Shown: positions 35,659 through 52,288 of the stretch, piece after piece
Numbering within the stretch: position 1 is the first letter of the stretch
How the letters are laid out: each line of letters starts with the position of its first letter
From: Escherichia coli
GTDB taxonomy: Bacteria > Pseudomonadota > Gammaproteobacteria > Enterobacterales > Enterobacteriaceae
Reading direction: 5' to 3' (one strand)
DNA length: 64,000 nt
NCBI RefSeq assembly: GCF_048403405.1
Contig: NZ_CP183129.1
Notes under the pieces: model-generated
The model's database searches: none
What the model saw: only the letters and a program-made list of their open reading frames with translations
Told to the model about the DNA's origin: nothing
Position numbers and translations under genes: made by a program

Positions 35659-36156
35659 ATGGATTTGTCACAGCTAACACCACGTCGTCCCTATCTGCTG
35701 CGTGCATTCTATGAGTGGTTGCTGGATAACCAGCTCACGCCGCACCTGGTGGTGGATGTGACGCTCCCTGGCGTGCAGGTTCCTATGGAATATGCGCGTG
35801 ACGGGCAAATCGTACTCAACATTGCTCCGCGAGCTGTCGGCAATCTGGAACTGGCGAATGATGAGGTGCGCTTTAACGCGCGCTTTGGTGGCATTCCGCG
35901 TCAGGTTTCTGTGCCGCTGGCTGCCGTGCTGGCTATCTACGCCCGTGAAAATGGCGCAGGCACGATGTTTGAACCTGAAGCTGCCTACGATGAAGATGCC
36001 AGCATCATGAATGATGAAGAGGCATCGGCAGACAACGAAACCGTTATGTCGGTTATTGATGGCGACAAGCCAGATCACGATGATGACACTCATCCTGACG
36101 ATGAACCACCGCAGCCACCACGTGGTGGTCGACCAGCATTACGCGTTGTGAAGTAA
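35659..36156 (+). CDS. sspB: ClpXP adaptor stringent starvation protein B
   Basis: 165 aa, MDLSQLTPRRPYLLRAFYEWLLDNQLTPHLVV, acidic tail ending RGGRPALRVVK. Confidence 0.97.
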   Translation: MDLSQLTPRRPYLLRAFYEWLLDNQLTPHLVVDVTLPGVQVPMEYARDGQIVLNIAPRAVGNLELANDEVRFNARFGGIPRQVSVPLAAVLAIYARENGAGTMFEPEAAYDEDASIMNDEEASADNETVMSVIDGDKPDHDDDTHPDDEPPQPPRGGRPALRVVK

Positions 36157-36160
36157 TACT

Positions 36161-36193
36161 AAAACAGGCCCTGGCGGCCTGTTTTGTCTTTTT
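36161..36193. terminator. bidirectional terminator between sspB and dcuD
   Basis: AAAACAGGCC-CTGGC-GGCCTGTTTTGTCTTTTT. Confidence 0.8.
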
Positions 36194-36199
36194 AATGAC

Positions 36200-37567
36200 T
36201 TAATAAAATAGCGTGATTGTGGCAATCATATTCACCACGAAACCGACTGCCATGGGGATCGCTGTCCGCTTCACTACCGCAAAAGGCGAAACGCCTGCAA
36301 TTCCTGACGTAACGACCACCACCGCAGTAATCGGCGAAACAGCGCGCGCTAGCGTCGTGGCAAAATGCATCGGCATAATCATTACAACCGCTGGCACATG
36401 TAGTCCGGCTGCGATATTCGGAATAAGACTGGCAAATGACATAAACGGCGCATTGCCTGAGCCCATCACAATGGCACAAATGGCAATGACCAGCGCCATA
36501 ATAATCATCACGCCAATACCGCCCAGACCAGAATGCTCCGCACCCCTGATAACCGCATCGACAGTGCCAATCGTCGTTAAGCCTTTCGCAAATATTTCAC
36601 CCGCGACCACCAGCGTTACCACGTTGGCAAACTGCGTACCCATGCCGTCAAAAAACGCCTGCACATCATCCATTGTTTCACGCAAGTTATGCTTGCGGAA
36701 GAACTCAACAAACATCGTCACCGTCAAACTCAGTAACATCACCACCACCAGATGCAGTTCTGACTGCATCAGCCCGACGTGGGCAAGGAACAGCGAGCCG
36801 AGCATCAGGATTAACGGCATCACCGGTAAAATGGCGTAATAGAGCGGTGGGACATTATCGAGAGCTTTTTGCTCTGCCTGTTCGTGATTGATATTTTTAT
36901 CTTTTTTGTCGAAAGCGCGTTGCACGAAAAAGTGGGAGATCGCCACCGAGATAATGACGCAAGAGGCGACCGGAAGCTGGTAGTGGAAGAAGTAAGTGGC
37001 AATTTTCATTCCTGCGACCTGGGCAGCAAAAATGGAGTTCGTTTCCAGAATCCCCCACTCAATGGACATCGTGGTTGCGATAACCGCCACCGCAGAGAGG
37101 CGACTTACTCCCAGACTCACCAGCGTCGGAAATAAGGTGACCATCAGCAACATACCCAGACCGGAGGCGCTGGTAATAAACTGCGCCATGATTTGGCCGA
37201 TGACGTAAGTTGCCGACAGAATAATATACGGCGAGCGAATGAGTTTTAACGGGCGGCTTAACAAGCTCACCATCGCGCGACTTGCCCCTATGCGCTCCAT
37301 ATAGCGGGCATAACCGCCCACTGCCATAATCGACAGCCCCAATCCGGCAATGCGGTTGGACAGCATGCGCAGGATTTCATTATAAATATCGACGATCAAG
37401 TAGCCGCTGCTTTTGGCGGGATCGAGCACACCACCGAACCCTAACCAGACACCGCACATCATCAGGAAGATACCTGCGACAGCCAGCACCACCTGAGGTT
37501 TGTAGTTTTTCAGGATCAAATAGCCCATCGTAATTAATACGATGACAGATATAATTATGCCGAACAT
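36200..37567 (-). CDS. dcuD: C4-dicarboxylate transporter DcuD (DcuC family)
   Basis: 455 aa from [25 protein letters not shown]; polytopic membrane protein. Confidence 0.9.
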
Positions 37568-37946
37568 TGTTGAACTCCGTGTCAAAAGAAAACGGTCAAT
37601 CCCATAAACGGCAGATTGAAAACAATGATGTTATATTTTTTGCAAGGCTATTTATGGTGCGGATGTCGTGTTTTTAATTGTAGGTGAGGTGATTTTTCAT
37701 TAAAAAATATGCGCTTATGATTATTTTGTAAGAACACATTCATAATATTCATAATGCTCGTGAATAGTCTTATAAATAATTCAATCGGGATGTTTTTATC
37801 TGCGTTACATTAATTTTTCACAATAGTTAATTATTCCGTTAATTATGGTAATGATGAGGCACAAAGAGAAAACCCTGCCATTTTCCCCTACTTTCAATCC
37901 TGTGATAGGATGTCACTGATGATGTTAATCACACTGACCTTACAGA

Positions 37947-38738
37947 ATGGGCCTTATGAACGCATTTGATTCGCAAACCGAAGATTCTTCACCTGCAATT
38001 GGTCGCAACTTGCGTAGCCGCCCGCTGGCGCGTAAAAAACTCTCCGAAATGGTGGAAGAAGAGCTGGAACAGATGATCCGCCGTCGTGAATTTGGCGAAG
38101 GTGAACAATTACCGTCTGAACGCGAACTGATGGCGTTCTTTAACGTCGGGCGTCCTTCGGTGCGTGAAGCGCTGGCAGCGTTAAAACGCAAAGGTCTGGT
38201 GCAAATAAACAACGGCGAACGCGCTCGCGTCTCACGTCCTTCTGCGGACACCATCATCGGCGAGCTTTCCGGCATGGCGAAAGATTTCCTTTCTCATCCT
38301 GGCGGGATTGCCCATTTCGAACAATTACGTCTGTTCTTTGAATCCAGCCTGGTGCGCTATGCGGCTGAACACGCCACCGATGAACAAATCGATTTGCTGG
38401 CAAAAGCACTGGAAATCAACAGTCAGTCGCTGGATAACAACGCGGCATTCATTCGCTCAGACGTTGATTTCCACCGCGTTCTGGCGGAGATCCCCGGTAA
38501 CCCAATCTTCATGGCGATCCACGTTGCCCTGCTCGACTGGCTGATCGCCGCACGTCCAACCGTGGCTGATCAGGCTCTGCACGAGCATAACAACGTTAGC
38601 TATCAACAGCATATTGCGATCGTTGACGCGATCCGCCGCCACGATCCCGATGAAGCCGATCGCGCGTTGCAATCGCATCTCAACAGCGTCTCTGCTACCT
38701 GGCACGCCTTCGGTCAGACCACCAACAAAAAGAAATAA
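37947..38738 (+). CDS. nanR: GntR/FadR-family repressor of sialic acid catabolism
   Basis: 263 aa with GntR HTH, immediately upstream of nanATEK. Confidence 0.95.
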
Positions 38739-38801
38739 TGCCACTTTAGTGAAGCAGATCGCATTATAAGCTTTCTGTATGGGGTGTTGCTTAATTGATC
38801 T

Positions 38802-38824
38802 GGTATAACAGGTATAAAGGTATA
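38802..38824 (+). promoter_or_regulatory. NanR operator: three GGTATA direct repeats in the nanA promoter
   Basis: GGTATAACAGGTATAAAGGTATA lies between nanR and nanA and matches the published NanR operator architecture. Confidence 0.8.
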
Positions 38825-38859
38825 TCGTTTATCAGACAAGCATCACTTCAGAGGTATTT

Positions 38860-39753
38860 ATGGCAACGAATTTACGTGGCGTAATGGCCGCACTCCTGAC
38901 TCCTTTTGACCAACAACAAGCACTGGATAAAGCGAGTCTGCGCCGCCTGGTTCAGTTCAATATTCAGCAGGGCATCGACGGCTTATACGTGGGTGGTTCG
39001 ACCGGCGAAGCCTTTGTACAAAGCCTTTCCGAGCGTGAACAGGTACTGGAAATCGTCGCCGAAGAGGCGAAAGGCAAGATTAAACTTATCGCCCACGTCG
39101 GTTGCGTCAGCACCGCCGAAAGCCAACAACTTGCGGCATCGGCTAAACGTTATGGCTTCGATGCCGTCTCCGCCGTCACTCCGTTCTACTATCCTTTCAG
39201 CTTTGAAGAACACTGCGATCACTATCGGGCAATTATTGATTCGGCGGATGGTTTGCCGATGGTGGTGTACAACATTCCAGCCCTGAGTGGGGTAAAACTG
39301 ACCCTGGATCAGATCAACACACTTGTTACATTGCCTGGCGTAGGTGCGCTGAAACAGACCTCTGGCGATCTCTATCAGATGGAGCAGATCCGTCGTGAGC
39401 ATCCTGATCTGGTGCTCTATAACGGTTACGACGAAATCTTCGCCTCTGGTCTTCTGGCGGGCGCTGATGGTGGTATCGGTAGTACCTACAACATCATGGG
39501 CTGGCGTTATCAGGGCATTGTTAAGGCGCTGAAAGAAGGCGATATCCAGACCGCGCAGAAACTGCAAACTGAGTGCAATAAAGTCATTGATTTACTGATC
39601 AAAACGGGCGTATTCCGCGGCCTGAAAACGGTCCTGCATTATATGGATGTCGTTTCTGTGCCGCTGTGCCGCAAACCGTTTGGTCCGGTAGATGAAAAAT
39701 ATCTGCCAGAACTGAAGGCGCTGGCCCAGCAGTTGATGCAAGAGCGCGGGTGA
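38860..39753 (+). CDS. nanA: N-acetylneuraminate lyase
   Basis: 297 aa, [27 protein letters not shown]... Confidence 0.97.
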
Positions 39754-39759
39754 GTTTTT

Positions 39760-39791
39760 TCCCCTCGCTCGCCCCTACCGGGTGAGGGGAA
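39760..39791. repeat. GC-rich hairpin element in the nanA-nanT spacer (possible attenuator)
   Basis: CCCCTCGCTCGCCCCTACCGGGTGAGGGGAA; same CCCCTC...GGGTGAGGGGAA architecture as 21911-21940. Confidence 0.45.
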
Positions 39792-39861
39792 ATAAACGCA
39801 TCTGTACCCTACAATTTTCATACCAAAGCGTGTGGGCATCGCCCACCGCGGGAGACTCACA

Positions 39862-41352
39862 ATGAGTACTACAACCCAGAATATCCCGTGGTATCGCCAT
39901 CTCAACCGCGCACAATGGCGGGCATTTTCCGCTGCCTGGTTGGGATATCTGCTTGACGGTTTTGATTTCGTTTTAATCGCCCTGGTACTCACCGAAGTAC
40001 AAGGTGAATTCGGGCTGACGACGGTGCAGGCGGCAAGTCTGATCTCCGCAGCCTTTATCTCTCGCTGGTTCGGCGGCCTGATGCTCGGCGCTATGGGTGA
40101 CCGCTACGGGCGTCGTCTGGCAATGGTCACCAGCATCGTTCTCTTCTCGGCCGGGACGCTGGCCTGCGGCTTTGCGCCAGGCTACATCACCATGTTTATC
40201 GCTCGTCTGGTCATCGGCATGGGGATGGCGGGTGAATACGGTTCCAGCGCCACCTATGTCATTGAAAGCTGGCCAAAACATCTGCGTAATAAAGCCAGTG
40301 GTTTTCTGATTTCCGGCTTCTCTGTGGGGGCCGTCGTTGCCGCTCAGGTCTATAGCCTGGTGGTTCCGGTCTGGGGCTGGCGTGCGCTGTTCTTTATCGG
40401 CATTTTGCCAATCATCTTTGCTCTCTGGCTGCGTAAAAACATCCCGGAAGCGGAAGACTGGAAAGAGAAACATGCTGGTAAAGCACCAGTACGCACGATG
40501 GTAGATATTCTCTACCGTGGTGAACATCGCATTGCCAATATCGTAATGACACTGGCGGCGGCTACTGCGCTGTGGTTTTGCTTCGCCGGTAACCTGCAAA
40601 ATGCCGCGATCGTCGCTGTTCTTGGGCTGTTATGCGCCGCAATCTTTATCAGCTTTATGGTGCAAAGTACGGGCAAACGCTGGCCAACGGGCGTAATGCT
40701 GATGGTGGTCGTGTTGTTTGCTTTCCTCTACTCATGGCCGATTCAGGCGCTGCTGCCAACGTATCTGAAAACCGATCTGGCTTATAACCCGCATACTGTC
40801 GCCAATGTGCTGTTCTTTAGTGGCTTTGGCGCGGCGGTGGGATACTGCGTAGGTGGCTTCCTCGGTGACTGGCTGGGAACCCGCAAAGCGTACGTTTGTA
40901 GCCTGCTGGCCTCGCAGCTGCTGATTATTCCGGTATTTGCGATTGGCGGCGCAAACGTCTGGGTGCTCGGTCTGTTACTGTTCTTCCAGCAAATGCTTGG
41001 ACAAGGGATCGCCGGGATCTTACCGAAACTGATTGGCGGTTATTTCGATACCGACCAGCGTGCAGCGGGCCTGGGCTTTACCTACAACGTCGGCGCATTG
41101 GGCGGTGCACTGGCCCCAATCATCGGCGCGTTGATCGCTCAACGTCTGGATCTGGGTACTGCGCTGGCATCGCTCTCGTTCAGTCTGACATTTGTGGTGA
41201 TCCTGCTGATTGGTCTGGATATGCCTTCCCGCGTTCAGCGTTGGCTGCGCCCGGAAGCATTGCGTACTCATGACGCTATCGACGGCAAACCATTTAGCGG
41301 TGCCGTGCCATTTGGCCGCGCCAAAAACGATTTAGTCAAAACCAAAAGTTAA
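39862..41352 (+). CDS. nanT: sialic acid:H+ symporter (MFS)
   Basis: 496 aa from [22 protein letters not shown]. Confidence 0.95.
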
Positions 41353-41399
41353 TCCTGTTGCCCGGTCTCTATACCGGGCCTTTCGCTAAGGGAAGATGT

Positions 41400-42085
41400 A
41401 TGTCGTTACTTGCACAACTGGATCAAAAAATCGCTGCTAACGGTGGCCTGATTGTCTCCTGCCAGCCGGTTCCGGACAGCCCGCTCGATAAACCCGAAAT
41501 CGTCGCCGCCATGGCATTAGCGGCAGAACAGGCGGGCGCGGTTGCCATTCGCATTGAAGGTGTGGCAAATCTGCAAGCCACGCGTGCGGTGGTGAGCGTG
41601 CCAATTATCGGGATTGTGAAACGCGATCTGGAGGATTCTCCGGTACGCATCACGGCCTATATTGAAGATGTTGATGCGCTGGCGCAGGCGGGCGCGGACA
41701 TTATCGCCATTGACGGCACCGACCGCCCGCGTCCGGTGCCTGTTGAAACGTTGCTGGCACGTATTCACCATCACGGTTTACTGGCGATGACCGACTGCTC
41801 AACGCCGGAAGACGGCCTGGCATGCCAAAAGCTGGGAGCCGAAATTATTGGCACTACGCTTTCTGGCTATACCACGCCTGAAACGCCAGAAGAGCCGGAT
41901 CTGGCGCTGGTGAAAACGTTGAGCGACGCCGGATGTCGGGTGATTGCCGAAGGGCGTTACAACACGCCTGCTCAGGCGGCAGATGCGATGCGCCACGGCG
42001 CGTGGGCGGTGACGGTCGGTTCTGCCATTACGCGTCTTGAACACATTTGTCAGTGGTACAACACAGCGATGAAAAAGGCGGTGCT

Positions 42086-42089
<4 letters not shown>
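41400..42089 (+). CDS. nanE: N-acetylmannosamine-6-phosphate 2-epimerase
   Basis: 229 aa from [23 protein letters not shown]. Confidence 0.95.
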
Positions 42090-43422
<1,333 letters not shown>

Positions 43423-43440
43423 AACTTAGTTCGTTTTAAA

Positions 43441-43468
43441 GATTCTGCAGACACTGTCTGCAGAATTC
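43441..43468. repeat. perfect 11-bp-arm palindrome centred on CAGAC-N3-GTCTG (nanQ/yhcG convergent spacer)
   Basis: ATTCTGCAGAC-ACT-GTCTGCAGAAT; no flanking T-tract; same family as the three units inside yhcG. Confidence 0.7.
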
Positions 43469-43481
43469 GAAACCGCTGAAA

Positions 43482-44609
43482 TTAACGGCGTCTATAGCCT
43501 TCCTCTAGCACCGCCTGTGTTCGAACGAGTTCATCCGCGAGTCGTTTTTCATCAGGTAGTTGCATCTTATATTCGCTCGCCAGAACGGTGTTAGGCAAAC
43601 CAGCCAGTGCATAATACGCTTCGCCGGCTCCTTTCTCTGCACAGAGAACCAGACCGATGGGCGGATTTTCATCCGGTAGTGTCCAGTGCTCTTTGGCGTA
43701 GTTGAGATACATATTCATCTGTCCGGCATCGCTATAGCTGAATTTGCCCACTTTTAGATCGACGATTAGCAGGCAGCGTAAACGGCGGTGGAAAAACAGC
43801 AGATCGACACGAAACCAGTTGTCATCAATGCGTAACCTTCGCTGTCGACCAACAAAGGCAAAATCATCCCCAAGTTCCAGCATGAAATCCATCAGGTGGT
43901 TGATCAGCGCCTCCTCAAAATCAGATTCTGAGTATTCATCTTTCAACTCCAGAAATTCGAGCACAAAGGGATCGCGTATCGCCTGTTGCGGAAGAATATG
44001 CATCTCGGCAGGAGCGTGTTGTTGCAGCATGGCTGATTTATCATGTGACAGTAGTGTTCGCTCATAAAATTGGGTCGCAATTTGCCGCTCTAGCTGGCGG
44101 ACAGACCAACCACAGCGGAGCGTTTCTTTTTCATAAAAGCTGCGGGCGTCAGCGTTTTTAACGGAAAGTAGACGGACGTAGGTGGACCAGGGCAGGGGGA
44201 AAGATTTGGCAGACAGCGTCTGCCAAATCTTTGCCGATGGGAATTCTGCAGACGGTGTCTGCGGCATTCCCAATGGTGTTAATTCGCCAGACACTGTCTG
44301 GCGAATTTCAACATGTTGAAAAAAGAGGTAAAAAAGCCTCATTTGGCGTAAGTTTTTTGCAGAGAACCCACGCTTATACCTTAGACTTAAATCCTTTGAT
44401 AGTCGCTTGATTAGCTGCGCACCATACGCAGCCCTGGCCTCGCCACCTTGTTCAAATTCGACAATTCGTCGGCCAATTTCCCAGTATGTCGCGGTCATCA
44501 GCGCGTTAACGCTACGTACCGTTTCCGTCCGGGCGCTATCGACCAGGTGAATAATACCGTCGTGGATTTGCTGGTAGCCTGTTGAGGTTCTCTCTGAGAG
44601 CGATTCCAT
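43482..44609 (-). CDS. yhcG: DUF1016 (YhcG-family) protein with predicted PD-(D/E)XK nuclease fold
   Basis: 375-aa ORF, N-terminus MESLSERTSTGYQQIHDGIIHLVDSARTE; C-terminal region has nuclease-like D...ELK motifs (IVDLKVGK). Confidence 0.85.
   Translation of the reverse strand: MESLSERTSTGYQQIHDGIIHLVDSARTETVRSVNALMTATYWEIGRRIVEFEQGGEARAAYGAQLIKRLSKDLSLRYKRGFSAKNLRQMRLFYLFFQHVEIRQTVSGELTPLGMPQTPSAEFPSAKIWQTLSAKSFPLPWSTYVRLLSVKNADARSFYEKETLRCGWSVRQLERQIATQFYERTLLSHDKSAMLQQHAPAEMHILPQQAIRDPFVLEFLELKDEYSESDFEEALINHLMDFMLELGDDFAFVGRQRRLRIDDNWFRVDLLFFHRRLRCLLIVDLKVGKFSYSDAGQMNMYLNYAKEHWTLPDENPPIGLVLCAEKGAGEAYYALAGLPNTVLASEYKMQLPDEKRLADELVRTQAVLEEGYRRR
44200..44307. repeat. three tandem hairpin-forming palindromic units inside the yhcG coding sequence
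   Basis: Units at 44200-44232, 44234-44276 and 44281-44307, each with arms ending in CAGAC, a 3-nt centre, and GTCTG; arms differ between units but stay self-complementary. Confidence 0.7.
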
Positions 44610-44792
44610 TATCTGTCCCTTTATATGGCGCTGTGTTGAATAATGGAATCAGCTATACGCCGGGCATCTGCCGGTAACAATCCAGATGTGCGTATTACAT
44701 TGGTTTTCTTCAGATTATGCGAGGCGCTTTCCAGTACGAAAGGAGAATTTCAGCGCCGACTCTTTTCTGAGGAGGCGGCGCTGGGACAGAGC

Positions 44793-46223
<1,431 letters not shown>

Positions 46224-49200
46224 TTACTGCGCCTGCACGCGCAACTCTGCTGCGCTACGACTACGGTGACCCAGCAGTGCTTTTACATCACTGGACTTCG
46301 GTTTAACCAGCGCAAATTTAGTGGCGAAGGTTGACCAGTTCGCCAGAATCTCTTCACCGCGCTGAGAACCGGTATGCTGAACATGCTCGGTGATAAGACC
46401 GCGCAGATGCTCTTCATGGATCGCCAGATCGTCAACGCTTAAGACCTCGACCAGTTCCGGGTTAACGCGTTTGCGGAAATCGCCGCTTTCATCGAGAACG
46501 TAAGCGAAGCCGCCGGTCATGCCCGCGCCGAAGTTAACGCCGGTTTTACCCAGAATACAGACAATACCGCCCGTCATATATTCACAGCCGTTGTCGCCAA
46601 TGCCTTCTACCACGGTGATAGCACCGGAGTTACGCACGCCGAAACGTTCACCCGCGCGGCCTGCGGCATACAGACGACCTCCGGTCGCGCCATACAGGCA
46701 GGTGTTGCCGATAATGCTTGCTTCATGGCTGCGGAAGGCTGAGCCAACCGGAGGACGAATGGCGATTAAGCCGCCCGCCATGCCTTTACCGACATAGTCG
46801 TTGGCATCACCGGTCAGGTACAGTTCCACGCCGCCCGCGTTCCACACACCGAAGCTCTGGCCTGCGGTGCCGTTGAAGTACGCTTTGATCGGATCGGCTG
46901 CCAGACCCTGATCGCCGTGCGTCTGGGCGATATAGCCTGAAAGCGACGCGCCGACAGAACGGTCGGTGTTGCGAATATCGAACCAGAAGGTTTTGCTCTG
47001 ACGCTCATCGACAAACGGTTTTGCCTGTTGCAGCAACTGTGCGTTCAGCAGGCCGTTATCAAACGGCGGGTTGTTTTCGGTACAGTAGAGCGCCTTACCT
47101 GGATGCGGCTCAGCGGTCTCCAGCAGTTTCGACAGCGCCAGTTTCTGCTGTTTGGCGGTGAAACCGTCCAGCTCTTTCAGCAGGTCGGTGCGACCAATCA
47201 GATCCACCAGACGCGTTACCCCCAGCTGTGCCATCAGCTCGCGGGTTTCACGGGCGATAAACTCAAAGTAATTAGTCACCTTGAACGGCAGGCCGTGATA
47301 GTGATTCTTACGCAGTTTGTCATCCTGAGTTGCTACACCCGTCGCGCAGTTGTTCAGGTGGCAAATACGCAGATATTTACAGCCGAGCGCCACCATCGGA
47401 CCGGTGCCGAAGCCGAAGCTTTCTGCGCCGAGAATCGCCGCTTTGATGATATCGACACCCGTTTTCAGGCCGCCATCGACCTGCAAACGAATTTTATGAC
47501 GCAAGCCGTTGGCAACCAGCGCCTGCTGGGTTTCCACCAGACCGAGTTCCCACGGACAGCCTGCGTATTTCACCGATGAAAGCGGGCTTGCGCCGGTGCC
47601 GCCGTCATAGCCTGCGATGGTGATTAAATCGGCATAAGCTTTCGCCACACCGGTCGCGATGGTGCCTACTCCCGGTTCGGACACCAGCTTCACGGAGATC
47701 ATCGCTTTCGGGTTAACCTGCTTGAGGTCGAAAATCAGCTGCGCTAAGTCCTCGATAGAGTAGATATCGTGGTGCGGCGGCGGGGAGATCAGCGTCACTC
47801 CGGGCACCGAATAGCGCAGTTTGGCGATGTAAGGCGTGACTTTATCGCCCGGTAACTGACCGCCTTCGCCCGGCTTCGCGCCCTGGGCGACTTTAATCTG
47901 AATGACGTCGGCATTGACCAGATACGCCGGAGTAACCCCAAAGCGACCAGAAGCCACCTGCTTGATGCGCGACACTTTGTTAGTGCCATAGCGCGCCGGA
48001 TCTTCGCCGCCTTCACCGGAGTTAGAGTTGCCGCCGATGCTGTTCATCGCTTCCGCCAGCGCCTCGTGGGCTTCCGGGCTTAACGCGCCGATAGACATCG
48101 CAGCGGTATCGAAGCGTTTAAACAGTTCGCTTGCCGGTTCAACATCCGCAATGTTGACCGCGTTTTCACCCGGCGTAATTGCCAGCAGATCGCGCAGCGT
48201 GGTTGCCGGACGCTCATTAACCAGCTTCGCGTATTCCTGATAGTCGCTGTACTCGCCGCTTTGTACCGCCTGTTGCAGCGTGCGCACCACGTCCGGGTTG
48301 TAGGCATGGTATTCGCCGCCGTGGACGTATTTCAGCAGGCCGCCCTGGCTGATGGGCTTACGCGCCAGCCAGGCACGTTTCGACAGATTCAGCAGATCCT
48401 GCTGGAAGTCTTCAAAGCTCGCCCCACCAATGCGACTGACCGCCCCCTGGAAGCACAGGCCCACGACATCATCGTGTAGACCGACCGCTTCAAACAGTTT
48501 CGAGCAGCGGTAAGAGGCGATGGTGGAAATGCCCATTTTGGACATGATTTTGTACAAGCCTTTGTTGATGCCGTTACGGTAGTTGAGCATCACGGTACGA
48601 TAATCTTTGGCAATCGCGTGGGTGTCTACCAGGCGGCCCAGCGTTTCATAGGCAAGGTACGGATAAATAGCCGTCGCACCGAAGCCCAGCAACACGGCGA
48701 AATGGTGCGGATCGCGGGCGCTGGCGGTTTCGACGATGATGTTGGCATCGCAACGCAAGCTTTGATCGACCAGACGGGTCTGGATCGCGCCAACCGCCAT
48801 CGGGGCTGGAACCGGCAGGCGATCTTTAGCGATATTCCTGTCGGAGAGCACCAGCAACACGGTGCCGCTACGTACCATTTTTTCAGCTTTGTCGCACAGC
48901 TCTTTGACCGTCGCTTCGAGCGTGGTTTTGGTGACGTCAAAGGTGATATCCAGTGTATCTGCGCGGTAGTGCTCCTCTTTCATCGTCGTGAGCTGTTTGA
49001 AATCGGAGTAGAGCAGAATCGGCGATTTAAAACTTAAACGGTGCGCCTGGCCCTCTGCTTCACAGAAGACGTTCATTTCACGACCAATGCTGGTGGCGAG
49101 CGACATAACATGCGCTTCACGCAGCGGGTCGATTGGCGGGTTAGTCACCTGGGCAAACTGCTGGCGGAAGTAGTCGTAAATAATGCGCGGCTGACTGGAG

Positions 49201-50684
49201 AGCACGGCGAATGGGGTGTCGTCGCCCATCGAACCGACCGCTTCCTGACCGTTTTCGCCCAGTACGCGAATTACGGAGTCCAGCTCTTCCGCGCTGTAGT
49301 TAAACTGTTTCTGGTAACTGGCAAGTGTGTCGTCGTCCAGTTCGCGGCTACCTACTTCTTCATCGGGCAGATCTTCAAACGGTACCAGTCGGCGGACGTT
49401 TTTCTCCATCCACTCTTTATATGGATGGCGGCTTTTCAGATCGTCATCGGTTTCTGCCGAGTGCAGAATACGCCCACTGCGGGTGTCGATAACCATCAGT
49501 TCGCCTGGCCCGACGCGGCCTTTTTCGACCACTTCGTCAGGCTGGTAATCCCAGATACCGACTTCAGAGGCGCAGGTGATGAGCTTATCTTTGGTGATGA
49601 CGTAGCGCGCCGGACGCAGACCGTTACGGTCGAGGTTACAGGCGGCAAAACGACCGTCAGACATCACGATGCCTGCCGGGCCATCCCACGGCTCCATATG
49701 CATGGAGTTAAAGTCAAAGAAGGCGCGCAGTTCCGGGTCCATATCCGGGTTGTTCTGCCAGGCAGGTGGGACTAATAGACGCATGGCACGGATGATATCC
49801 ATCCCGCCTGCCAGCAGGAGTTCCAGCATGTTATCCATCGAACTGGAGTCAGAGCCGGTTTCGTTGACGAACGGCGCGGCGTCGTGCAGGTCAGGGATCA
49901 GCGGCGTCTGGAATTTATAGGTACGCGCACGCGCCCATTGGCGGTTACCGGTGATGGTGTTGATTTCACCGTTATGCGCCAGGTAGCGGAACGGCTGCGC
50001 CAGCGGCCAGCGCGGTACGGTGTTAGTGGAGAAGCGCTGGTGGAACAGGCAAATGGCCGATTCCAGACGCAGGTCCGCAAGATCCAGATAAAAGCGCGGC
50101 AGATCCGCCGGCATACACAGACCTTTATAAATATTGACCAGATTCGACAGGCTACAGACGTAGAAGTCTTTGTCGGCTTCGAGACGCTTTTCAATGCGGC
50201 GGCGGGCGATAAACAGACGGCGCTCCATATCGCGCGGACGCCAGCCTGCCGGGGCGTTCACAAAAATTTGCTCAATGCGTGGCAGAGAGGAGAGGGCGAT
50301 TTCACCCAGCACGCCTTCGTTAGTGGGGACATCACGCCAGCCCACAATCGACAACGTTTCGCGTTGCAGCTCTTCTTCAACGATGCGGCGTGCGGCAGCA
50401 GCGAGTTCAGGATCTTTATTCAGGAAGAGCATCCCGACAGCGTAGTTTTTTGCTAAACGCCATCCGCGCTCCTGCGCAACGATGCGAAAAAAGCGATCCG
50501 GTTTTTGTAACAGCAAGCCGCAACCGTCACCGGTTTTACCATCGGCGAGAATCGCGCCACGGTGCTGCATGCGGGCCAGTGCGTGTATAGCAGTACGCAC
50601 TACCTTGTGGCTAGGTTCGCCTTCTATGTGGGCGATCAGGCCGAAACCACAGTTATCCCTCTCAAGGGATTTATCGTACAACAT
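46224..50684 (-). CDS. gltB: glutamate synthase (NADPH) large subunit
   Basis: Start set at [19 protein letters not shown] (short propeptide before the catalytic Cys; 1486 aa). The track ORF continues in frame 36 codons further upstream, to 50792. Confidence 0.93.
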
Positions 50685-51358
50685 ATCGTGAACCTCCCCC
50701 AGGCTCTGCGGGAACCCCACTTCCGAACCGCTGCGCACGGGCACAGAAAGAGCGTGGCGACGGGGTTTGCGTGTCATACGCGCGCCTCGCATTCGCCCCC
50801 TTGTTGTCCTTTTCGCATCGGTTAATACGGTGAAGAGGGGATCTCAATTACTGCATAAATATGATGAGCAGGCTGCTCATCCAGAAAGCTTCCAGCGGAT
50901 TTCCAACTTATCGGGAAAGCTGATACAGGTCAAATGGCAAGCTTATTGGTACAGAAATGTGCTTTAGCGCAAAATTCTTTATTAATTAGCTGAAATTAAA
51001 ATGGATTTTCTCTTTAAGGCTAAAAGGGGAGTCGTTAGAGAAACTGCCAATTCCTGACTGTCATAAAGGCGTGTTAACCCTTATCCTGCCTTGAACTGAC
51101 GAGAAAACCAGCATTTTATACTGCCTTAATTGTTAATGGCATTTTATGCTACTGTTTTTGCCTAAAATCTATAAGGAGATAAAAAAATCTGACACAAGAT
51201 AAGCAAAAATGATTTATGTGATCATGCATGAAATTTCGGTAATTTTGATTGATTATGCAGTTGATAAAAGCAGGCCGGGACGATTGATCCAGGTCATCGC
51301 CGAATTGAGCTAAAAATGGCAGGCTTTGGCCTCTTTTCAAGGCGCGGTCTATCAGATT
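50685..51358. promoter_or_regulatory. gltB upstream regulatory region and divergent yhcC promoter
   Basis: About 670 bp of AT-rich non-coding DNA between divergent gltB and yhcC; the gltBD promoter is known to have an extended upstream regulatory region. Sites not mapped here. Confidence 0.4.
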
Positions 51359-52288
51359 ATGCAGTTACAGAAATTAGTCAATATGTTTGGTGGTGATCTC
51401 ACCCGTCGTTATGGGCAAAAGGTGCATAAGCTGACGCTGCACGGCGGTTTTAGCTGCCCTAACCGTGACGGTACCATCGGGCGTGGCGGCTGCACATTCT
51501 GTAATGTTGCCTCGTTTGCCGATGAAGCGCAGCAACATCGTTCTATTGCCGAACAACTGGCGCACCAGGCGAATTTAGTTAACCGCGCTAAACGCTATCT
51601 GGCCTACTTTCAGGCGTATACCAGCACCTTTGCGGAAGTTCAGGTGCTGCGTTCTATGTATCAGCAGGCGGTGAGCCAGGCCAATATTGTTGGTTTGTGT
51701 GTTGGTACCCGCCCGGACTGCGTGCCGGATGCGGTGCTGGATCTGCTTTGCGAATATAAGGACCAGGGTTACGAAGTGTGGCTGGAGCTGGGGCTACAAA
51801 CCGCCCACGACAAAACGCTGCATCGCATCAATCGCGGTCATGATTTTGCCTGCTATCAGCGCACGACGCAGTTGGCGCGTGAGCGCGGGCTGAAGGTGTG
51901 TTCTCACTTAATTGTCGGCCTGCCTGGCGAAGGGAAGGCTGAATGTTTGCAAACGCTGGAGCGAGTGGTTGAAACCGGCGTGGACGGCATAAAGCTGCAT
52001 CCGCTGCATATAGTAAAAGGCAGCATTATGGCGAAAGCCTGGGAAGCGGGGCGTTTGAACGGTATTGAACTGGAGGATTACACGCTCACTGCCGGAGAAA
52101 TGATTCGCCATACGCCACCGGAAGTGATCTACCACCGCATTTCCGCCAGCGCCCGTCGCCCGACGTTGCTTGCTCCGCTGTGGTGCGAAAATCGATGGAC
52201 GGGAATGGTCGAGCTGGATCGTTATCTGAATGAACATGGCGTACAGGGATCGGCGCTGGGACGTCCGTGGCTACCTCCAACGGCGTAG
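51359..52288 (+). CDS. yhcC: radical SAM protein YhcC
   Basis: 309 aa from MQLQKLVNMFGG; the Cys cluster is CPNRDGTIGRGGCTFC. Confidence 0.88.
   Translation: MQLQKLVNMFGGDLTRRYGQKVHKLTLHGGFSCPNRDGTIGRGGCTFCNVASFADEAQQHRSIAEQLAHQANLVNRAKRYLAYFQAYTSTFAEVQVLRSMYQQAVSQANIVGLCVGTRPDCVPDAVLDLLCEYKDQGYEVWLELGLQTAHDKTLHRINRGHDFACYQRTTQLARERGLKVCSHLIVGLPGEGKAECLQTLERVVETGVDGIKLHPLHIVKGSIMAKAWEAGRLNGIELEDYTLTAGEMIRHTPPEVIYHRISASARRPTLLAPLWCENRWTGMVELDRYLNEHGVQGSALGRPWLPPTA

Follow-up and report, generated by a model that had tools for sequence, protein, structure and literature searches.

The gltD gene, which encodes the small subunit of glutamate synthase, and yhcG lie only 183 bp apart in the 64,000-nt stretch of Escherichia coli DNA analyzed here (the window), and no gene is found between them. 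In K-12 the same gltD/yhcG site holds the Yhc locus, gltF-yhcA-yhcD-yhcE-yhcF, a beta-class chaperone-usher cluster which is wholly absent from the window. Was a fimbrial operon removed from this lineage, or was it never there? Wurpel et al. (2013) left open whether most strains have lost Yhc, which would then be a remnant, or whether it was acquired later (PMC3559732).

The genes gltB (46224-50792), gltD (44793-46211) and yhcG (43482-44609) follow each other on the minus strand in the order gltB-gltD-yhcG. GltD has 472 aa (TIGR01318, E 1.6e-270) and is annotated as such in the RefSeq record of strain PCN033. YhcG, a DUF1016 / PD-(D/E)XK nuclease of 375 aa, matched Pfam PF17761 (DUF1016_N) and PF06250 (YhcG_C). 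On the plus strand the nan operon (nanR, A, T, E, K and Q; 37947-43422) converges on yhcG, and its last gene nanQ (yhcH; 42958-43422; NF040884, E 1.8e-70, and annotation) bounds the variable interval on its far side. From the gltD stop (44793) to the yhcG start (44609) the gap is exactly 183 bp (44610-44792), its right edge being the gltD stop codon. PCN033 is 100% identical to the window from 44200 to 45200, and its annotation has the same two genes 183 bp apart; its identity to the window falls to 98.7% over 9-16 kb.

All three ORFs of at least 20 aa that touch positions 44610-44792 are plus-strand frames antisense to either gltD or yhcG, and profile search gave no family match for them. The Rfam search of the spacer gave no match. 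No ORF in the gap encodes an usher (PapC_N, Usher or PapC_C), a PapD-type chaperone or a DUF1120 subunit, which means that no member of the Yhc system lies there, and K-12 GltF, YhcA, YhcD and YhcF searched by tblastn found no match anywhere in the 64-kb window. The first-pass annotation had described 183 bp free of ORFs between the two genes; the coordinates are confirmed, and the three antisense frames are all that has to be added.

It had also placed about 7 kb with gltF and the yhcADEF genes between gltD and yhcG in K-12. This is indeed the K-12 order, and no direct adjacency exists there: strain BW25113 holds 7,210 bp between the gltD and yhcG codons, comprising gltF, yhcA, yhcD, yhcE split by IS5 (yhcE::IS5) and yhcF. 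Yhc is cryptic in K-12 because IS5 disrupts yhcE (PMC3559732, PMC5216030). Both GltF and YhcF of K-12 are DUF1120 proteins according to Pfam. The GC content of the fimbrial cluster is 42-47%, against 56-58% in its flanks.

On the gltD side, homology between the window and K-12 begins at the stop codon (44791). On the yhcG side the two are near-identical to about 44655 and then about 65-70% identical, with conserved blocks, up to 44732 (about 75 bp). By alignment the difference is a replacement, 58 bp against about 7.1 kb, together with a diverged stretch, and not a clean indel. The flanks of the K-12 cluster match those of E32, TKEC21-17 and 08_3323, which are strains of the junction type. The last 300 nt of K-12 gltD are 99.3-99.7% identical to these three strains right up to the stop, and for K-12 nanQ the figures are 99.6% against E32 and 08_3323 and 96.8% against TKEC21-17. 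After gltD, K-12 carries a palindromic hairpin which is unrelated to the hairpin found in the window at 44751-44783.

About 126 bp of K-12 just downstream of gltD (L001 18490-18620) are homologous to a Pseudocitrobacter sequence (L008 11441-11565; 67%, E 1e-10), a yhcG-less MAG in which the matching region lies downstream of its own gltD. The window-type allele lacks this stretch, and the ST131 allele lacks most of it. The gltD-proximal 130 bp or so of K-12 were also considered as an inverted piece of yhcG, and this was rejected, as the palindrome alone matches.

Counted from gltD, the spacer starts with a 58-bp segment (44733-44790, minus strand) which alignment and a search of the K-12 interval found to be missing from the K-12 allele. 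It is present at 92-100% identity in E32, TKEC21-17, 08_3323, LR-62-2, Escherichia lineage L005 and E. albertii, and no counterpart was found across the 7,210-bp interval of K-12 or in any cluster-bearing locus. Because these 58 bp are common to the relatives and missing in K-12, K-12 would have lost them when the cluster entered. The segment contains the hairpin CAGCGCCGCCUC-N9-GAGUCGGCGCUG (44751-44783, minus strand; 12-nt arms, 92% complementary), with a folding energy of -19.2 kcal/mol and a z-score of -2.7; none of 200 shuffled sequences folded as well. Its stem begins 10 nt past the gltD stop codon (17 nt from the codon start), and as a GC-rich stem-loop directly after a stop codon it resembles a terminator. 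The stem is followed by AAAUUCUCCUUUCG and not by the U-run of a canonical terminator, and consensus promoter and terminator scans of the spacer called no site, this hairpin included. It is a plausible and likely gltD terminator. In the alignment the stem sequence is kept in Pseudocitrobacter faecalis, and Salmonella and Citrobacter koseri have a different hairpin at the same position.

The rest of the spacer (44610-44732, minus strand) is shared with K-12 at 76% identity overall, and would be the upstream region of yhcG with its promoter and 5'UTR. The blocks TGGAAAGC, CTCGCA, AATGTAATAC, GGATTG and GCGTAT are conserved out to Salmonella in the alignment. The spacer length of 183 bp was found again in all five of the other junction-type E. 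coli loci that were fetched. In K-12, a candidate antisense RNA of stationary phase, G0-10703, extends over 128 bp of the yhcG 5'UTR (PMC7967276).

Repeat search found an inverted repeat with perfectly matching 11-nt arms, GATTCCATTAT / ATAATGGAATC, which are separated by 27 nt (44602-44650, minus strand). The yhcG ATG (44609-44607) sits in the proximal arm (44602-44612), and the outer arm is at 44640-44650. The fold of -16.9 kcal/mol (z -1.1) is no better than that of shuffled sequence. The junction had been said to coincide with this repeat, which holds only in part: near-identity to K-12 does stop next to it, at about 44655 just past the outer arm, but homology runs on to 44732 and both alleles have the repeat. 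Since K-12 (10 of 11 bases) and E. marmotae have retained it, the repeat is a feature of the yhcG 5' region and not a product or scar of rearrangement.

Outgroup genera share with the window both the adjacency of gltD and yhcG and their common strand. Spacers of 207 bp (Salmonella enterica), 209 bp (C. koseri), 181 bp (P. faecalis) and 183 bp (the cryptic Escherichia clade L100) separate the two genes, and the YhcG orthologues of these four have 77-82% aa identity. Escherichia lineage L005 has the direct layout too, as has the type strain of E. albertii, with a 3'-truncated yhcG, and the junction is found at 95-98% identity in three other Escherichia species-level lineages. The resemblance of the Salmonella, C. 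koseri and P. faecalis regions to the window includes gene order, strand, a length of 181-209 bp, shared blocks and a terminator-like hairpin directly after gltD; unlike in the window, genes for cytosine permease and deaminase separate yhcG from the nan operon in Salmonella. Among these loci, a small and opportunistic sample with at least two Escherichia loci among the GltD matches listed and the others reached through YhcD and YhcG homologues, the spacer is orthologous and its divergence from the window scales with distance: 2.7% in E. coli E32, 3.3-6.0% in other Escherichia, 26% in P. faecalis and 43% in Salmonella. None of the outgroup loci was recognized as coming from E. fergusonii, Shigella, E. 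ruysiae or E. whittamii. Such growth of divergence with phylogenetic distance fits what would be expected for vertical descent. As yhcG follows gltD in the outgroups with orthologous spacers, the direct junction can be taken as the ancestral state of the group.

Within Escherichia the spacer differs by 2.7-6.0% where four-fold degenerate sites of gltD differ by 16-28%, a conservation 4-7 times that of synonymous sites. In the comparison with Salmonella its divergence reaches the neutral level (43%, with 42% at the four-fold degenerate sites of gltD). The low values within Escherichia could come from lineage-specific constraint or from recent spread of a haplotype across species.

The three alleles of this site were counted in 5,426 complete E. 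coli genomes, a collection biased to laboratory K-12 derivatives and clinical clones. A contiguous direct gltD-yhcG junction is present in 3,140 genomes (58%). The K-12-type cluster is carried by 1,122 genomes if at least 80% of the K-12 gltF-yhcA-yhcD segment is asked for and by 1,293 with any match, and 1,288 of these 1,293 matches are at least 99% identical to K-12. A third allele, of ST131 type, without cluster and without yhcG, is found in 947. Together the three make up about 96-99% of the complete genomes. It means that the K-12 layout is the minority, the direct junction is common and the window is not unusual. Yhc has been described as a sporadic, under-represented beta-class locus, present only in K-12 and in phylogroup A ETEC (PMC3559732, PMC5216030), and this sporadic distribution, with its restriction to phylogroup A (PMC5216030), is already published.

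Positions 44200-45200 of the window were matched at 99% identity or more in only 7 of the 5,426 genomes. From about 44700 to 47900, which covers gltD and the 3' part of gltB, the window differs by 4-6% from K-12, E32, ST131 and LR-62-2, and at four-fold sites it is 20% off those E. coli, equal to its distance from E. albertii. Among E. coli strains the stretch from nanK to gltB is a mosaic of 93-99% identity. This mosaic and the divergent gltD/gltB allele suggest recombination between lineages.

Fimbrial clusters at this site are not limited to E. coli. The order gltD-gltF-yhcA-yhcD-yhcE-yhcF was found at the same site and in the same orientation in some E. albertii (YhcD 82% aa identity) and in E. 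marmotae (YhcD 67%), and inverted homologous clusters abut gltD in Citrobacter sp., Kluyvera and two Enterobacter species (E. asburiae/cloacae), with YhcD at 41-57%. The loci of these diverged gltD-adjacent clusters are L088-L093, L094, L095, L012 and L013. The Kluyvera and E. asburiae clusters have additional DUF1120 subunit genes. In Citrobacter L094, gltD is followed by the inverted cluster, the yhcG upstream blocks and a 5' remnant of yhcG, and in E. marmotae a K-12-type yhcF-yhcG intergenic region, 85% identical to that of K-12, is followed by a yhcG pseudogene. Klebsiella oxytoca carries a cluster at an unrelated locus elsewhere in its genome. At the nucleotide level, identity of K-12 to E. 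marmotae is 64% for gltF, 74% for yhcA, 67% for yhcD, 80-88% for yhcE and 85% for yhcF, and to E. albertii it is 74%, 80%, 77%, 64-71% and 66%, respectively; the flanks in these comparisons are 92-95% identical. By these alignments the cluster alleles are a mosaic and deeply diverged. Cluster and empty haplotypes coexist in E. coli and also in E. albertii. Diverged copies at the same site in relatives mean that the cluster type is also old at this site. We found no report of the synteny of diverged clusters directly after gltD in the literature searched; the same-site copies of E. marmotae and some E. albertii and the inverted copies of Citrobacter, Kluyvera and Enterobacter are a new but modest observation.

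Several histories could give an empty junction. The chance that the cluster is present after all, and was collapsed in the assembly or missed in annotation, is negligible: the junction is not an assembly artefact, because six independent complete genomes (TUM14771, GN02461, 4621, MS 69-1, TUM1226 and OX030728) are 100% identical over 36000-52000, a span of 16 kb. It is also contiguous in the 3,140 genomes counted above, and beside the antisense frames the gap offers neither ORF nor fimbrial homology, the latter being missing from the rest of the 64-kb window as well. A recent clean deletion, in which the window lineage had a K-12-like gltF-yhcADEF and lost about 7 kb at once, is very improbable. 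The K-12 cluster does stand at exactly the same place and the locus does suffer deletions, with yhcG truncated in E. albertii, E. marmotae and TKEC21-17 and absent in ST131. However, the 58 bp at 44733-44790 sit in the junction and are absent from K-12, thus the junction is not derivable from the K-12 allele by deletion. The clean removal of the cluster, one of the two readings offered by the first-pass annotation, is contradicted by this segment and by the next 75 bp or so, which are only about 65-70% alike. Moreover, the junction of the three other Escherichia lineages and its orthologue in P. faecalis would have to be explained, no fimbrial gene fragments were found among the gap ORFs or by tblastn of the 64-kb window, and the breakpoints have no flanking direct repeats.

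The loss might also be very old. The cluster would then have been present in an early enterobacterial ancestor, the empty junction would have arisen once before the split of Escherichia and Salmonella, and the two haplotypes would since have persisted or been exchanged across species. At least five genera have homologous clusters next to gltD, in one orientation or the other, Citrobacter L094 keeps the yhcG upstream blocks and a remnant beside its inverted cluster, the yhcF-yhcG intergenic region of E. marmotae is of K-12 type, and both haplotypes occur within E. coli and within E. albertii, all of which would agree with such an ancestor. But the cluster genes are only 64-88% identical between K-12 and E. 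marmotae where the flanks are 92-95%, and they are mosaic, which repeated horizontal replacement at a hotspot fits equally; the K. oxytoca cluster is at an unrelated locus; and the empty spacer is free of scars, with what looks like a normal terminator and promoter region. We consider this old loss unlikely. The other reading of the first-pass annotation, that the locus is ancestral and without fimbriae, agrees with the direct layout and orthologous spacer in Salmonella, C. koseri, P. faecalis, the Escherichia lineages and 58% of the E. coli genomes. The 183 bp are very probably an ordinary, vertically inherited gltD-yhcG region, in which case the junction is ancestral and the K-12 arrangement is derived.

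The ST131 or B2-type allele is also without the fimbrial cluster and carries the same palindromic hairpin family as the window. Unlike the window, it lacks yhcG and the 183-bp spacer; gltD and nanQ are 67 bp apart and converge on a single palindromic hairpin (L003 11936-12002). Its gltD flank (13 nt and the hairpin) is identical to that of K-12 and the flank on the nanQ side matches the hairpin that follows yhcG, and for this reason the allele looks like a deletion derivative of the K-12-type allele, as if formed between two copies of the palindrome.

The palindrome belongs to yhcG itself. Repeat search and alignment showed three in-frame 39-bp tandem units in the gene (44193-44309, minus strand), each a palindrome around CAGACNNTGTCTG, which encode EIRQTVSGELTPL / GMPQTPSAEFPSA / KIWQTLSAKSFPL. 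There is one unit in Salmonella, C. koseri and Escherichia L100, two in P. faecalis and L005, and three in the window and K-12; in locus L086, loss of two units and 2 bp leads to a yhcG frameshift. The palindrome is within the yhcG coding sequence in every genus examined. The gene is one of the LSPA-6 typing loci of E. coli O157:H7 and shows length polymorphism there (PMC3514354). This is length variation of the same gene, consistent with the 39-bp copy number, and it concerns the interior of yhcG and not the gltD-yhcG junction. To judge from locus L086, the published LSPA-6 amplicon alleles may be linked to the 39-bp units.

A copy of the yhcG-internal palindrome forms a hairpin between the convergent nanQ and yhcG (43441-43467; -22.7 kcal/mol, z -5.5), which is found in Escherichia only and not in P. 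faecalis, C. koseri or Salmonella. Other extragenic copies are located at L001 18578-18606, L003 11961-11989, L004 3411-3486, L008 11446-11482, and L091 7970-8000 and 14130-14290. K-12, ST131 and E. marmotae each have a copy immediately past gltD, and where yhcG has suffered deletion, as in the E. albertii type strain, E. marmotae and Pseudocitrobacter L008, copies sit at the deletion endpoints. The CAGACNNTGTCTG palindrome was considered as a dispersed mobile element and rejected, as the median is two places per genome (two strands of one locus) and the maximum four.

YhcG matched the PADLOC candidate single-gene anti-phage family PDC-S02 over its full length (residues 8-370, E 1.9e-135). The gene is damaged or lost in E. 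albertii, E. marmotae, Citrobacter L094, TKEC21-17 (with a transposase fragment), 08_3323 and ST131, and a role in defense, as the candidate family assignment would imply, may explain why truncation, frameshift and deletion of yhcG are frequent. We tentatively raise the possibility that the site after gltD is a long-lived, trans-species presence/absence site for a beta-class operon, with rearrangements seeded by the palindrome native to yhcG.

Gene order, spacer orthology and allele counts were observed directly; for the direction of change and the mode of recombination in the region as a whole we infer the following history. The order gltB-gltD-yhcG followed by the nan operon would be ancestral in the group of Escherichia, Salmonella, Citrobacter and Pseudocitrobacter. 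Within E. coli, the window lineage would never have had a fimbrial operon removed and would simply have retained the ancestral junction, the spacer consisting of the terminator-like hairpin of gltD and then the presumed promoter and 5'UTR of yhcG. Into an otherwise typical E. coli chromosome, the low-GC beta-class cluster gltF-yhcADEF would have entered between the gltD stop and the yhcG upstream blocks, replacing the 58-bp terminator segment, most likely through homologous recombination with a diverged Escherichia-like donor.

Taken alone, this is an ordinary result of little consequence. For annotation, the 183 bp can be read as the gltD terminator and the yhcG regulatory region. It gives a partial answer to the question of Wurpel et al.: within E. 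coli, Yhc behaves as an acquisition into the ancestral gltD-yhcG junction, although the cluster type has a long history at the same site in related species. More generally, the K-12 gene order is not the default of E. coli, and an operon of K-12 that seems to be missing from another strain is often a gain of K-12.
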